Virus record (IMG/VR): IMGVR_UViG_2703719355_000024
DNA: 4,369 nucleotides
From: a virus
Lineage: Duplodnaviria > Heunggongvirae > Uroviricota > Caudoviricetes
Reading direction: 5' to 3' (one strand)
The translations under genes were made by a program, and so were the position numbers. This document shows, piece after piece, positions 1 through 4,023 of this stretch. Positions within the stretch are counted from its first letter, which is position 1. Each line of letters begins with the position of its first letter. The notes under the pieces were generated by a model that made no database searches, had not been told where the DNA came from, and saw nothing but the letters and a program-made list of their open reading frames with translations.

Positions 1-354
1 TTGTCTGGCGCTTTTCCAACCGCTGGCGCTATCGCAGGGTTCTCTGGAGGAGGTGTTATTGGAGCAATAGTTGGTGGCGCTGCAGGTGGAGCAATTGATG
101 CGATAGCAAAAGGATCGATAGCGAAATTATCCGCAACCAGAAGTGGTCGTTACGCTATTGAAAAGGCTGTTCAAGAGGCAACAAAGGCAGTTAAGGTTGG
201 GGCAAGTGATGGCGCATTAGCGGCGGCAGAACGCAGATTTATGGCAAATAAGGCCGCCGTAAAAGCAATACGCGAGGCACTAGGAAACGAAGAGTTCCAG
301 CGTTTAGCAAGGGCTGGAATTGTGGCATCGCTAAGCGGAATGGCACAGGAGTAA
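1..354 (+). CDS. 3' portion of a CDS that probably starts upstream of the window (5'-partial); hypothetical protein with a Gly/Ala-rich hydrophobic segment followed by an Ala/Lys/Glu-rich helical tail; by position possibly the last virion/ejection-protein gene of a P22-like late operon
   Basis: Open frame from base 1 to TAA at 352-354. Position 1 is TTG with no upstream context, so it is most likely an internal codon. Residues 5-35 (AFPTAGAIAGFSGGGVIGAIVGGAAGGAIDAIA) form a glycine-zipper-like hydrophobic stretch. The ejection-protein assignment is inference from synteny only. Confidence 0.5.
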   Translation: MSGAFPTAGAIAGFSGGGVIGAIVGGAAGGAIDAIAKGSIAKLSATRSGRYAIEKAVQEATKAVKVGASDGALAAAERRFMANKAAVKAIREALGNEEFQRLARAGIVASLSGMAQE

Positions 355-684
355 TTAGTCATCCATGGATGGATTGAGCTTATCTCGTGTTGATGTGGCA
401 ATTTTACCAACATTTTTCAACCAAGATTTTAAGAAGGATATGTCGTCCTTAATATCATGAATATCCTCATTCTTTATACGATCAACCTTATCCTCTAGGC
501 TCTCTATAGAACGCTCAATGCTAGACAGAGAGACTTTTAAGTCTCCTTGCTCACGTTCCAGTGAGGATTTGAGAGCACAATATTCGTTTTCTAGAATTCC
601 TATTTTTTTTGTTAGAGAGTGCATTCGATACTCATACACCAAACCAGAAACGACTAATGCAGCCAACAGAAACCATTCAAGCAC
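355..684 (-). CDS. hypothetical small membrane-anchored coiled-coil protein (109 aa, GTG start)
   Basis: Minus-strand ORF with GTG start at 684-682, preceded by a strong Shine-Dalgarno (minus strand AAGGAGG, 5-nt spacer). N-terminal hydrophobic segment LEWFLLAALVVSGLVY, then a charged heptad-like region (LENEYCALKSSLEREQGDLKVSLSSIERSIESLEDKVDRIKNE). Stop TAA is the complement of 355-357. Confidence 0.55.
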   Translation of the reverse strand: MLEWFLLAALVVSGLVYEYRMHSLTKKIGILENEYCALKSSLEREQGDLKVSLSSIERSIESLEDKVDRIKNEDIHDIKDDISFLKSWLKNVGKIATSTRDKLNPSMDD

Positions 685-825
685 ACCAACCTCCTTAGTT
701 TTGCGCAGGATACCAGATGATAATGTATTGGTGGAGTGGTGTGTGAAAACGTGTCAACGACAAACCATCCACAACTTGGACGAATGATTTAGCAAAAAGT
801 GCTATTTTTGGTGTTTGGTGTCATA

Positions 826-1058: not shown

Positions 1059-1502
1059 ATGCTTACTTGTTTTGATGTCGCCGACTACTTCCTGTCGCGG
1101 TGTGACGAGGATAGCGGTGACACAATCTCTAATTTAAAATTACAAAAGCTTGTTTACTATGCTCAGGGTTTTTCATTGGCGTTGCTTGGCGAGCCTCTTT
1201 TTCAGAATAAGATGGAAGCTTGGATGCATGGCCCTGTTGTCCCTGAGCTTTATCGCCGTTATAAACAATATGGTAATGGCGCTATCCCTTCTCCAGAGTC
1301 TTTTGATGCTGAAAAATTCAGCGAAGAACAGTTAGAGCTATTAGAAGAAGTCTGGGATGTTTTTGGGCAATTTTCTGCCTGGAAACTGAGGAACATGACA
1401 CACGAAGAGTCACCATGGAGATCAAACTATATTGAGGGTGTTGGTGGTTCTGAAATTAGCTCTAAGGAGATGGCAGAGTACTTTGCAACTCGGATTAACT
1501 AA
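1059..1502 (+). CDS. Panacea-domain protein (DUF4065 / SocA-like antitoxin domain, GepA-type phage-associated protein); putative antitoxin or sensor component
   Basis: ATG at 1059 with GGAGG 7 nt upstream; the GTG at 1053 given in the ORF track sits on the SD and is less likely. The segment LKLQKLVYYAQGFSLALLGEPLFQNKMEAWMHGPVVPELYRRYKQYG matches the DUF4065/Panacea core pattern as I recall it. Stop TAA at 1500-1502. Confidence 0.75.
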   Translation: MLTCFDVADYFLSRCDEDSGDTISNLKLQKLVYYAQGFSLALLGEPLFQNKMEAWMHGPVVPELYRRYKQYGNGAIPSPESFDAEKFSEEQLELLEEVWDVFGQFSAWKLRNMTHEESPWRSNYIEGVGGSEISSKEMAEYFATRIN

Positions 1503-1506
1503 CGAG

Positions 1507-1926
1507 ATGGCAAGAAAATCTAAAAGGATTATCCCCCCTGCTGAATCTACAGGTAAGTTAAAGTTAGGGCCGCAGTCAGGGGGGAATTCAGATCAAAAGA
1601 AACCGAAATTTTCATTCTGTTACATCCAAAGCTCTCACTGCATAACGAAATGCCAAAAAGATGAGAAAGCTGGCTTAGCTGATAAATTATACAGATTAAG
1701 TCAACTAACATGGGCAGAGATTAAGCAGCAAGGTAGGCATAAGCTTGGATTTGAGAAGATTGCAAGGGGTGCCATTAAAGCAGGTATCCCCAGTCATATA
1801 ACGGAAGACGTAGATCATTTCTTGGCTTTTAGATTTGATGATTTGAAAGCCATGGTTGGTTATCGTCTTGGATCGACATTTTTTGTTATATGGCTTGATA
1901 GAGAGTTCAACCTATACAAGCACTAA
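1507..1926 (+). CDS. hypothetical 139-aa protein, candidate toxin/effector partner of the Panacea-domain protein
   Basis: ATG at 1507 lies 4 nt after the upstream stop, in the same orientation, with no strong SD of its own, suggesting translational coupling. The ORF-track start at 1432 is a TTG inside the upstream gene. Basic low-complexity N-terminus (MARKSKRIIPPAESTGKLKLGPQSGGNSDQKKPK), a Cys/His cluster (FSFCYIQSSHCITKC), and a beta-rich C-terminus. No family recognised. An intrinsic terminator follows immediately. Confidence 0.7.
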   Translation: MARKSKRIIPPAESTGKLKLGPQSGGNSDQKKPKFSFCYIQSSHCITKCQKDEKAGLADKLYRLSQLTWAEIKQQGRHKLGFEKIARGAIKAGIPSHITEDVDHFLAFRFDDLKAMVGYRLGSTFFVIWLDREFNLYKH

Positions 1927-1953
1927 TAAAACCCACCGTCAGGTGGGTTTTTT
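1927..1953. terminator. bidirectional rho-independent terminator shared by the convergent Panacea operon and the repressor gene
   Basis: AAAA (1927-1930), stem ACCCACC (1931-1937), loop GTCA (1938-1941), stem GGTGGGT (1942-1948), then a T-run from 1949. The flanking A-tract and T-tract allow function in both directions. The repressor stop codon (complement of 1939-1941) lies in the loop. Confidence 0.8.
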
Positions 1954-2748
1954 GTTGTCTCTGCTATCGAGAAGGAAGTTCAATTTTTCCTCTATTTCTT
2001 TAAGCTTGAGATAAAGTAATTCTTTCTCGGTTCTGGCATTTTCAGCTATAAAATCCTCTGCTTCATCCAACGTATTTTCGCTATCTCTTATCGAGTGCAG
2101 CGGGGTTTTTAACAAATCAATTTGTGCATGAATAGCTACAGCAATGATTTCCATATCATCACTGATTTCCAACATCGGGTACGCTGGATTAAGTGGTTTT
2201 AAGTAAAAATGCCCCTGATCTCTTATTAGTTGCTTGAAGGTGGTTTCAAATCCATTGCAACACAGCACGAAGTCTCCTGGTTTGGCCTGAATATCCGGAT
2301 CAAAGCAGACAGTGTAGCCATCCGGGAAGCTAATTCCAGAAGATGATGTCATTGAATGCCCTGTAACCACTAACGCAAATGCATTATTCCCGGCACATAA
2401 CGGGGCAGGGATAAAGTCTATAGGAGTAATGTCGCTTGGAAATTTTCCTCCTTTAGGATAGGAATTTGATAGGTGCGAGAATACGGGGATCTCTCTGACT
2501 GTTACCGTTCTCTGTATTGAGCTAACATCAGGCCCCTCACCAACACCGATAGCTAACCATTCTGTTGTTGTCCCTAAAGTAGCAGCCAGATTTCGTAACA
2601 CAGCGTCCCTTGGCTTGGAATCTCCTGCTTCATAGGCTGCTATTTGCCTTCTTACGATGCCAACCTTATCAGCTAACTGACCTTGAGTCAGCCCCATGGC
2701 AGCGCGAGCGATAGATATACGCTTAGGAAATGAATCGTCAAATTTCAT
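1939..2748 (-). CDS. lambda CI / P22 C2-type repressor: N-terminal HTH (XRE/Cro-C1 type) plus C-terminal S24 (LexA-like) peptidase domain, with an additional ~55-residue charged helical C-terminal extension
   Basis: Start taken as ATG at 2748-2746 with SD AAGGA 6 nt upstream; the ORF-track start at 2805 has no SD and would overlap the candidate divergent promoter. HTH: ISIARAAMGLTQGQLADKVGIVRRQIAAYEAG. S24 domain: GHSM (Ser nucleophile) and TFKQLIRDQGHFYLKPLNPAYPMLE, very close to lambda CI [26 protein letters not shown] and P22 C2 [24 protein letters not shown] as recalled from memory. Confidence 0.85.
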   Translation of the reverse strand: MKFDDSFPKRISIARAAMGLTQGQLADKVGIVRRQIAAYEAGDSKPRDAVLRNLAATLGTTTEWLAIGVGEGPDVSSIQRTVTVREIPVFSHLSNSYPKGGKFPSDITPIDFIPAPLCAGNNAFALVVTGHSMTSSSGISFPDGYTVCFDPDIQAKPGDFVLCCNGFETTFKQLIRDQGHFYLKPLNPAYPMLEISDDMEIIAVAIHAQIDLLKTPLHSIRDSENTLDEAEDFIAENARTEKELLYLKLKEIEEKLNFLLDSRDNKKPT

Positions 2749-2770
2749 ATGTGATCCTTTAAAGTTCACA

Positions 2771-2799
2771 TTGACACATTCAAATTCATGGCAAATAAT
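2771..2799 (+). promoter_or_regulatory. candidate sigma70 promoter for the arc-like/antirepressor operon (Pant analogue)
   Basis: TTGACA at 2771-2776, 17-bp spacer, AATAAT at 2794-2799, about 50 bp upstream of the arc-like start. Flanked by repeated TGTGA/TCACA half-sites that could be operators. Confidence 0.45.
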
Positions 2800-2848
2800 T
2801 GGCATGAGTTTGTGATGATGTGTGATTCAAAAATACATGAGGTGAATA

Positions 2849-3022
2849 ATGGAACAGAAGAAAAAAGATATCAAGCCTATCTCCTACCGCCCAAGTGCTG
2901 AAGTGCGTGAGTTTTTGGAAGGTAACGCAGCTAAAAGCTACCGCTCAATTCAGGGAATGCTTGATTTCTTTATGGCAAGAGTGATGGAGATGGAGAGGAA
3001 AGGTGAAATTGTCATCCATTAA
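2849..3022 (+). CDS. arc: Arc-like ribbon-helix-helix transcriptional repressor (57 aa)
   Basis: Not in the supplied ORF track (below its length cutoff). ATG at 2849 with GAGG at 2839-2842; stop TAA at 3020-3022. Protein [57 protein letters not shown] aligns by eye with P22 Arc as recalled: a basic beta-strand (FNLRWPREV vs ISYRPSAEV), the RS motif, and RVME in helix B. Sits directly upstream of the antirepressor-like gene, as in P22 immI. Confidence 0.7.
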
Positions 3023-3093
3023 AAATGTTGAAGCCCCAACTGCTGCAACAGTCAGGGCTTCGGTATCAACAAAACTTACGAGGTATTATTGAT

Positions 3094-4023
3094 ATGTCAA
3101 GCTTAGCAAAGTCAACTGTAAATTGCACTAACAGCATCACCATTTCAGACGTCAAGATTCATATGGATTCAGAGGGGCGTTACTCGCTTAATGACCTGCA
3201 CAAGGCATCAGGTAAAGAGCGTCGTCATGAGCCTGCTGCGTGGCTGCGACTAGAACAAACCAATGAGTTAGTTCAAGAAATTCTAAATACACAGATGTGT
3301 GTATTTAAAAATGGCGATAACTTTAATTCTTCAGAATCGCAGATTAAGAAGCCAATGGACTCTAAGAAGGGTCGCTACGGAGGCACCTACGTGTGCAAGG
3401 AGCTTGTTTACTCCTACGCCATGTGGATTAGCGCAGCCTTTGCGCTGAAGGTTATCCGTGCATATGACGCAATGGTTACTACCACACAAGAGAGGAAGGC
3501 TATTGGCGGTAAAACTTCAGTAGCTGAACGCACACCGCTACGCGATGCAGTAAACATGCTGGTAGGAAAGAAAGGGCTTCGCTATGACGATGCATACAAT
3601 ATGGTTCATCAGCGTTTTGGTATTGACAGCATTGATGAACTTTCAATTGAACAAATCCCGCTGGCCGTAGAGTACATCCACAGGGTAGTGCTTGAAGGTG
3701 AGTTCATCGGCAAACAAGAGAAGAAAACCAACGAGCTTTCTGCAAAAGAAGCAAACAGCCTTGTATGGTTATGGGATTATGCCAACCGCTCACAGGCATT
3801 ATTCCGCGAATTGTATCCGGCGCTAAAACAAATTCAATCGAACTATTCCTGCAGATGCTACGACTACGGTCATGAGTTCTCGTATGTTATTGGAATGGCG
3901 AGAGACGTTTTAATAAACCACACACGAGATGTTGATATCAATGAGCCAGACGGACCAACGAATCTTTCCGCATGGATGAGACTTAAGAATAAAGAATTAC
4001 CTCCTTCAGTACATAACTACTGA
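3094..4023 (+). CDS. KilA-N domain protein, putative antirepressor (functional analogue of P22 Ant)
   Basis: ATG at 3094 with GAGG at 3080-3083. The in-frame ATG at 3025, 2 nt after the arc-like stop, has no SD but cannot be excluded. N-terminal region has KilA-N hallmarks ([53 protein letters not shown]). Followed by a strong intrinsic terminator. Position between the arc-like gene and the tailspike matches P22 ant. Confidence 0.75.

Follow-up and report, generated by a model that had tools for sequence, protein, structure and literature searches.

A stranded 3´ end of gene 16 beside an intact hkcB: the left edge of a probably decayed P22-like ant moron in an Escherichia coli chromosome

Gene product 16 (gp16) of phage P22 is an ejection protein that spans the cytoplasmic membrane (bioRxiv 10.64898/2026.09.03.749273), and the cytoplasmic-membrane part of the P22 channel has so far been resolved only to ~10 Å. 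Downstream of gene 16 lies the ant moron, through which polymerase initiated at PLate transcribes in P22-like phages to reach tailspike gene 9 (PMC2629481). The literature on HK620, epsilon34 and P22 has already described the genes dealt with here, their convergent arrangement and the late transcription that reads through the ant moron, and the hkcB homologue of epsilon34 is explicitly mentioned in PMC2629481, the single relevant mention of hkcB that we found in the literature. Here we analyze a 4,369-bp stretch of viral DNA (IMG/VR record IMGVR_UViG_2703719355_000024; “the window” in the following), with emphasis on its first 684 bases, which hold the end of a plus-strand gene 16 and, convergent to it, hkcB. 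The gene order of the window, a cassette running from gene 16 to the tailspike gene with ant and regulators in between, identifies it at the sequence level as the immI or “ant moron” region of a P22-like (Lederbergvirus) phage (comparison loci: HK620, P22, 611R6 and epsilon34). With good confidence we read bases 1-354 as the stranded 3´ end of an HK620-type gene 16 and bases 355-684 as an intact convergent hkcB, together forming the left edge of a decayed ant moron.

Frame 1 of the plus strand is open from base 1 to a TAA stop at 352-354. Its product can be assigned by homology to the P22 gp16 ejection-protein family, HK620 type: the remnant differs from HK620 gene 16 by 10 nucleotide substitutions over 351 nt (~97% nucleotide identity), and window positions 1-700 match coliphage HK620 with ~97% nucleotide identity. 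In precomputed annotations PF26808 (Phage_P22_gp16), a family that the local Pfam copy does not contain, is recorded on the identical product of 117 amino acids (aa) and on all 26 homologues. Full-length HK620 gp16 matches phrog_770 (“DNA transfer protein”) over residues 18-679 with E = 4.5e-220. Scans of the gp16 fragment against the local Pfam copy, NCBIfam and PADLOC gave no informative family, and a PDB sequence search with HK620 gp16 gave nothing meaningful. An earlier reading of the window from sequence only had suspected a virion or ejection protein here and recommended a comparison with P22-like ejection proteins; that comparison led to the gp16 family, so that the suspicion is borne out as far as homology goes, but what the window holds is a 3´ remnant, classed as a pseudogene by the Prokaryotic Genome Annotation Pipeline (PGAP).

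The origin of the remnant becomes visible in the chromosome of E. coli Z1323CEC0010, whose positions 2065937-2070305 (NZ_CP148445.1) are identical to the window (0 mismatches over 4369 bp). In this region PGAP calls two pseudogenes, a “DNA transfer protein” without its N-terminus and a tailspike without its C-terminus. In the upstream direction, similarity to HK620 gene 16 breaks off ~9 bp ahead of window position 1, an in-frame stop stands five codons upstream, and the genes preceding the remnant are J, lom and tail-fibre genes of a lambdoid prophage and an NleG effector gene. The sequence-only reading had pictured an upstream gene running into the window as part of a late operon and had expected the full protein from an extension of the contig. 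Neither expectation agrees with the NZ_CP148445.1 flank, which yields no full protein and has lambdoid tail-fibre genes and nleG in the place of a P22-type late operon. The 7-20-16 cluster is found in the relatives L004, L006, L007 and L009, and the remnant locus is without it, having the last 117 codons only.

Of 5426 complete E. coli genomes, only 3 contain in full a 301-bp probe that spans the breakpoint. Within this probe, homologies of the nleG side cover bases 1-159 and those of the gene 16 side bases 143-301, and the resulting overlap of 17 bp is as expected from a microhomology-mediated join. In the assembly collection, 127 blocks index the 117-aa product (TTG start) in identical form. 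The six contexts shown all have the order nleG, gp16´, hkcB, cargo; five of them include the right end, where tailspike´ (81 aa) and dacD follow, and three extend into sbmC. In phage E212 the DNA matched by the 3´ end of the window lies beyond a complete tailspike gene, so most of the tailspike gene of the window was lost by an internal deletion. Both edges of the window coincide with remnant open reading frames (ORFs), gp16´ on the left and tailspike´ on the right.

We infer a history of two events. Deletion or illegitimate recombination would have joined codon ~603 of gene 16 to DNA downstream of nleG in a lambdoid prophage, and a second deletion would have taken nearly the whole tailspike gene, so that the remnant now adjoins dacD and sbmC. 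The gp16 fragment in this remnant is most likely non-functional. Two points weigh against our interpretation. A source with an intact gene 16 is conceivable in principle, a point countered by the truncated tailspike inside the window and by the window edges lying at remnant ORFs. Also, a Shine-Dalgarno-like AAGGAG stands 6 nt before the TTG of the remnant ORF, so translation is possible. Coordinates of all features are given in Table 1.

Separately, the same two breakpoints (a gp16 stump after nleG and a tailspike stump before dacD) were seen to enclose at least three cargo sets (L013/L014/L016 and L025 vs L020-L024). The first set is of the window type, the second comprises a PIN-domain gene, Mnt, two Arc and a Bro-N antirepressor, and the third comprises Panacea, Arc, a P22_AR_N antirepressor and an HNH gene. 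Apparently, incoming P22-like phages have recombined with the remnant via the conserved flanks and exchanged its interior.

Table 1. Features of the window and of the adjoining fusion joint, with coordinates, strand and basis.
Feature	Position (window)	Strand	Basis or remark
Fusion joint, nleG-downstream DNA / gene 16	-9 to +8 (L010 7992-8008)		17-bp homology overlap
3´ remnant of HK620-type gene 16, last 117 codons plus stop	1..354	+	homology to HK620 gp16 residues 606-722
Gly/Ala-rich uncharged segment, six-step GxxxG ladder	7..114 (window residues ~3-38)	+	residues 608-643 of the 722-aa HK620 gp16
Conserved gp16 C-terminal helical domain, begins at invariant motif ATRSGRYAIEKAVQEA	118..351	+	AlphaFold2, alignment
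Stop/stop junction TAA/TTA, gene 16 / hkcB	352..357	.	0-bp spacer
hkcB, 109 aa, intact	355..684	-	97% identical to HK620 HkcB
Promoter-like site TTCACA-16-CATTAT upstream of hkcB	720..747	-	weak, not conserved among homologues
Panacea/SocA-domain protein (antitoxin-type)	1059-1502	+	PF13274, E = 1.8e-24
139-aa partner, 4 bp downstream	1507-1926	+	phrog_8366; weak PADLOC NsnC match, E = 6e-6
270-aa repressor, HTH_3 + Peptidase_S24 (LexA/CI-like, self-cleaving type)	1939-2751	-	in the place of P22 mnt
sar RNA, P22 antisense regulator of ant	3026-3092	-	Rfam RF00262, 62.3 bits vs gathering score 43, E = 1.3e-11
Tailspike remnant, 81 codons	4124-4369 (L010 12124-12369)	+	PF09008 head-binding domain at residues 1-73, short unrelated tail, stop

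Aligned with one another, the gp16 sequences of HK620, P22, E212 and three metagenomic or genomic relatives reveal a protein of mosaic build. Over its N-terminal ~220 residues it is 62-70% identical to P22, and the remainder has no similarity to P22 detectable by BLAST. The last ~75 residues form a charged, Ala-rich, helical domain, modelled by AlphaFold2 as a helical bundle of five to six helices (residues 40-112 of the fragment; predicted local distance difference test, pLDDT, 80-94), and a Foldseek comparison of the fragment model with PDB and BFVD gave no match below E = 2.6. Among hkcB-linked gp16 variants this domain is 84-88% identical, with substitutions mostly at third codon positions. 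In CUS-3 and HK620 the last 75 residues of gp16 are 85% identical and hkcB follows in both, while the overall identity of the two proteins has been published as only 26% (PMC10883804). Low overall identity combined with high terminal identity, with hkcB present in both phages, indicates that the C-terminal domain and hkcB constitute a separate mosaic module. The same paper describes the ejection proteins of CUS-3 as SieA-sensitive and those of HK620 as partly resistant; given that both share the domain, the determinant of SieA resistance should lie outside it.

The two genes of the module meet in a stop/stop junction. On the minus strand, hkcB starts with a GTG at 684 and ends with a stop read as TTA at 355-357, so the stops of the two genes touch without a spacer and form the 6-bp palindrome TAATTA. 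Both the abutting stops and the missing terminator had been claimed in the sequence-only reading, and both hold. The relevant strands of positions 1-700 contain no terminator-like site (a weak minus-strand one lies at 783-765, upstream of hkcB), the RNA on either side of the junction is no more stably folded than shuffled sequence (z-scores -0.7 to -1.5), a search of both strands found no structured RNA at the junction, and the sole inverted repeat nearby (214-227/253-266) is without a T-run. A 12-bp palindrome, CATCCATGGATG, at 360-371 was considered and dismissed, as it encodes the C-terminus of HkcB and is not kept in the hkcB homologues of L007-L009.

The 0-bp junction is kept in every one of the 11 hkcB loci examined (HK620, 611R6, epsilon34, CUS-3, SEN22 and the six genomic or metagenomic loci L004-L009), realized by three different stop-codon pairs (TAA/TTA, TGA/TCA and TGA/TTA), and HkcB identity among these loci goes down to 49%. 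Conservation reaches its maximum in a block across the junction, made up of the final ~75 codons of gene 16 and the final ~45 of hkcB. A DNA- or RNA-level element as the cause of this conservation was rejected for gene 16: of the 39-45 substitutions in its last 75 codons, 29-37 are at third positions, a bias that speaks for selection at the protein level. We picture the 0-bp junction as an inherited module boundary, with the gp16 C-terminal domain and the 3´ end of hkcB probably moving together as one conserved block. Around this block chimeric ORFs also occur. In P0048 and P0049 the last ~45 HkcB residues are joined to an unrelated N-terminus without a membrane anchor, and in P0010 and P0012 the gp16 C-terminal domain is joined to a helix-turn-helix domain or to other N-termini; they look like further products of recombination or decay.

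The second conspicuous feature of the remnant is a Gly/Ala-rich stretch, which the sequence-only reading had taken for a hydrophobic glycine-zipper tail. The stretch is real and carries a six-step ladder, but it is no tail, as it lies ~80 residues ahead of the C-terminus, at the start of the frame in the window, and its hydrophobicity is borderline for a transmembrane helix (best 19-residue Kyte-Doolittle mean 1.65; crude Hessa-scale sum +3.8 kcal/mol, which is weak evidence given that such a simple sum discriminates poorly even for the HkcB anchor). Residues 1-42 comprise 12 G, 11 A, 6 I and 3 charged residues. Six glycines (G9, 13, 17, 21, 25, 29) are spaced i,i+4, and shuffles of the same 42 residues reach six steps at a frequency of 0.003, so the periodicity exceeds what composition would produce. 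The GxxxGxxxG register of a transmembrane glycine zipper is present, and the segment is the most hydrophobic stretch of HK620-type gp16. A six-step ladder is also found in the divergent variants L004, L007, P0010 and P0019 and is absent in P22, E212 and L006; the segment of hkcB-linked variants keeps its uncharged, small-residue composition. Across these alignments the ladder appears as a conserved feature of the C-terminal region of the HK620-type gp16 subtype.

Published data bear on the part of the protein that carries the ladder. C-terminal putative transmembrane helices were found in all tabulated gp16-like homologues, HK620 included (2022 review, PMC8954989), and the SieA-escape substitutions G532W and P546S map to the corresponding region of P22 gp16 (PMC10883804). 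P22 AAIP546TLG aligns with GAFP6TAG of the window, and the ladder directly follows the P546-homologous position; it thus begins where the SieA-sensitive region lies. For intact phages we tentatively propose helix packing or a membrane role as the most likely function of the ladder, a proposal about which we are somewhat less than evenly confident. The glycines might mediate helix-helix packing or membrane insertion as gp16 oligomerises into the cytoplasmic-membrane part of the DNA conduit.

Several observations speak against such a role. Within the C-terminal region the Gly/Ala segment shows the lowest sequence conservation (26-71% identity), AlphaFold2 gives a pLDDT of ~30 and no secondary structure over the ladder (residues 1-31), P22 gp16 has no comparable ladder (longest ladder 1; 8 charged residues in the segment), and membrane association of P22 gp16 in vitro does not require residues 476-609, the C-terminal 134 (Perez et al., cited in PMC10883804). 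Searches with the Pfam glycine-zipper families Gly-zipper_Omp, Gly-zipper_OmpA and Gly-zipper_YMGG gave no match at E <= 10, and the nearest related signal was a sub-threshold NCBIfam match to PdsO (E = 0.006, 16 bits vs a cut-off of 152). The serious rival is therefore a mere flexible low-complexity linker between the gp16 body and the C-terminal helical domain, to which the disordered model, the low sequence conservation with retained composition, the borderline hydrophobicity, the missing family match and the dispensability of the P22 region would all be congenial. What a linker does not account for is the strict register of six glycines, rare given the composition, which recurs in four divergent variants and suits one face of a helix better than a random coil. 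Nor does it explain why, in a protein known to span the cytoplasmic membrane, the highest hydrophobicity should fall on ~30 residues free of charge. We regard the linker as the less likely of the two and retain helix packing or a membrane role as our working hypothesis.

A second alternative concerns the remnant itself. The 117-aa ORF could be translated on its own, for example as a gp16 C-terminal decoy that disturbs conduit assembly of superinfecting P22-like phages. Through the fusion the Shine-Dalgarno-like sequence has come to lie 6 nt ahead of the TTG, many assemblies carry the ORF in intact form (the 127 indexed blocks), the complete helical domain is retained and confidently predicted, and further independent gp16 C-terminal fragments occur in bacterial genomes. 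On the other hand, TTG is a weak start codon, the scarcity of the breakpoint among complete E. coli genomes (3/5426) suggests one clonal event, variants with frameshifts or several non-conservative changes exist (P0006, P0002), and matches to fragments are expected when the search query is the fragment itself. A stand-alone product is thus very improbable, and a non-functional gene end remains our interpretation of bases 1-354.

The convergent layout raises the question of antisense transcription. The missing terminator after gene 16 finds its explanation in late transcription, which must reach the tailspike gene beyond the moron; in some relatives, e.g. CurroJimenez_Bas106, gene 16 is joined straight to the tailspike gene with no moron in between. 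In intact phages late transcription would read hkcB in antisense on its way to the tailspike gene, as a by-product rather than as a dedicated control. A search of positions 1-700 found no discrete antisense element (promoter, terminator or structured RNA), and the own promoter, terminator and conserved structure that characterize a dedicated cis-antisense regulator are missing from this interval. For sieA, which occupies the same slot in P22, published RNA-seq reportedly showed up-regulation on induction and not silencing (PMC10883804). At the locus studied here no terminator is predicted between nleG and the gp16 fragment, and it is speculation that only lambdoid prophage transcription could enter the remnant from the left. 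The proposal of the sequence-only reading, that an intact membrane-active ejection gene runs into the window and that its late transcription exerts built-in antisense control on the small membrane-protein gene facing it, has in its favour the real homology to gp16, the lack of spacer and terminator, and the PLate transcription crossing the region in intact P22-like phages (PMC2629481), which makes lytic interference with hkcB physically plausible, but it is refuted for this locus, where gene 16 is truncated and preceded by nleG in every context recovered for the exact sequence, and with no antisense-specific element at 1-700, a sieA that goes up on induction and a read-through explained by tailspike expression (gene 16 adjoining the tailspike gene directly in CurroJimenez_Bas106) we give it next to no credence. 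A real antisense control in the window is sar RNA, placed between a 57-aa ORF in arc position and the start of ant and accompanied by a terminator-like hairpin at 3061-3030.

The partner gene, hkcB, is intact, and its GTG start is preceded by the Shine-Dalgarno sequence AAGGAGG, which is kept in all homologues. HkcB matches phrog_5962 (unknown function). AlphaFold2 models it as a single helix (residues 2-103, mean pLDDT 86) with a hydrophobic N-terminal part followed by a long coiled-coil-like stretch. Scans against Pfam, NCBIfam and PADLOC gave generic coiled-coil matches only, and a PDB search with an HkcB profile gave nothing meaningful. No conserved hkcB promoter could be established, conservation being limited to the Shine-Dalgarno sequence and ~35 nt upstream of the start. 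The gene is found only beside the HK620 type of gp16 C-terminus (5/5 distinct phages and 6/6 other loci) and is missing in about half of the phages with this type. Its slot holds sieA, encoding an inner-membrane exclusion protein, in P22, there after a 22-bp spacer. HkcB and P22 SieA share this genomic position alone: BLASTP gave no alignment at E <= 100, and HkcB fails on the similarity, the three or four transmembrane segments and the FxRYPxEAxxFNK motif that define SieA types A-C. In another remnant (L017 5001-5737; also L018 and L019) a 2-bp spacer separates a gp16 C-terminal stump of 82 aa from a convergent gene for a 161-aa lipoprotein (lipobox LVGC), with mnt and a truncated tailspike beyond it. 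The slot after gene 16 thus repeatedly hosts oppositely oriented genes for envelope proteins.

This constellation permits a speculation about function. HkcB might be an envelope protein, expressed from the prophage, whose target is the gp16 C-terminal domain of the neighbouring gene, an idea we consider rather improbable. It could, for instance, exclude phages in the manner of SieA by blocking conduits made of other gp16 types, or act in a way that its own gp16 type evades, which we offer as a reasonable lead because hkcB stands beside one gp16 type only in 11/11 loci, because the slot holds SieA in P22 and a lipoprotein in another remnant, and because HK620 ejection proteins partly escape SieA. 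If true, an action of HkcB on gp16 would explain the inheritance as a block with an invariant 0-bp junction as well as the retention in decayed prophages.

The remaining part of the window contains the cargo of the moron. The Panacea-domain gene and its 139-aa partner are closed by a terminator-like hairpin at 1928-1951, on the plus strand only, and by their domain content look like a PanA-type toxin-antitoxin or defence module. The S24 repressor gene points away from the arc-position ORF and ant; of the promoter-like sites in the window, the best is located at 2771-2799. With a repressor of the self-cleaving type in this place, the antirepressor, a KilA-N/P22_AR_C protein, may be under SOS-cleavable rather than Mnt control.

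Our results bear on three issues. For genome annotation, they are a caution that an ORF which apparently continues beyond a window may be a gene end left stranded. For DNA ejection, the ladder, which adjoins the SieA-escape positions, is a concrete and mutable segment for studying how HK620-type gp16 crosses the cytoplasmic membrane. And the strict link of hkcB to one gp16 C-terminal type is a testable lead on the function of an orphan prophage gene.

Among known systems, phage HK620 (NC_002730; gene 16 NP_112087, hkcB NP_112088; Clark et al. 2001) is the closest, with the same frames, the same 0-bp junction (gene 16 at locus coordinates 1186-3354, 722 aa, and hkcB at 3355-3684), the glycine ladder and an HkcB of 109 aa. 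It differs from the window in having a full 722-codon gene 16 within a 7-20-16 late operon, where the window has the last 117 codons fused downstream of nleG, and in the cargo downstream of hkcB. P22 gp16, one of the targets of SieA exclusion, belongs to the same family, and its gene is in the same place; it shares 70% identity with HK620 gp16 over residues 64-218 of the latter, and the C-terminal regions align with the QTG and P546 position kept, precisely where the SieA-escape sites fall. It differs from the HK620 type in that the C-terminal ~500 residues have no BLAST-detectable similarity, and it is without the ~75-residue terminal helical domain.

Transmembrane glycine zippers are reported, in work attributed to Kim et al. 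in 2005, to be GxxxGxxxG packing motifs of channel-forming helices. The ladder resembles them in its extended GxxxG register on an uncharged segment of a membrane-channel-forming protein, and differs in that the segment is below the hydrophobicity of a classical transmembrane helix, is not predicted as a helix and matches no Pfam glycine-zipper family.

The whole locus, finally, is comparable to the ant moron or immI region of P22-like phages (Villafane et al. 2008, PMC2629481). Both are a variable cassette between gene 16 and tailspike with ant, an arc-position ORF and sar RNA, and both carry oppositely oriented, prophage-expressed genes in a region crossed by PLate transcription. In contrast, the moron in the window survives without its phage and with both flanking virion genes truncated, and it harbors a LexA/S24-type repressor in the place of mnt together with the Panacea-domain pair.

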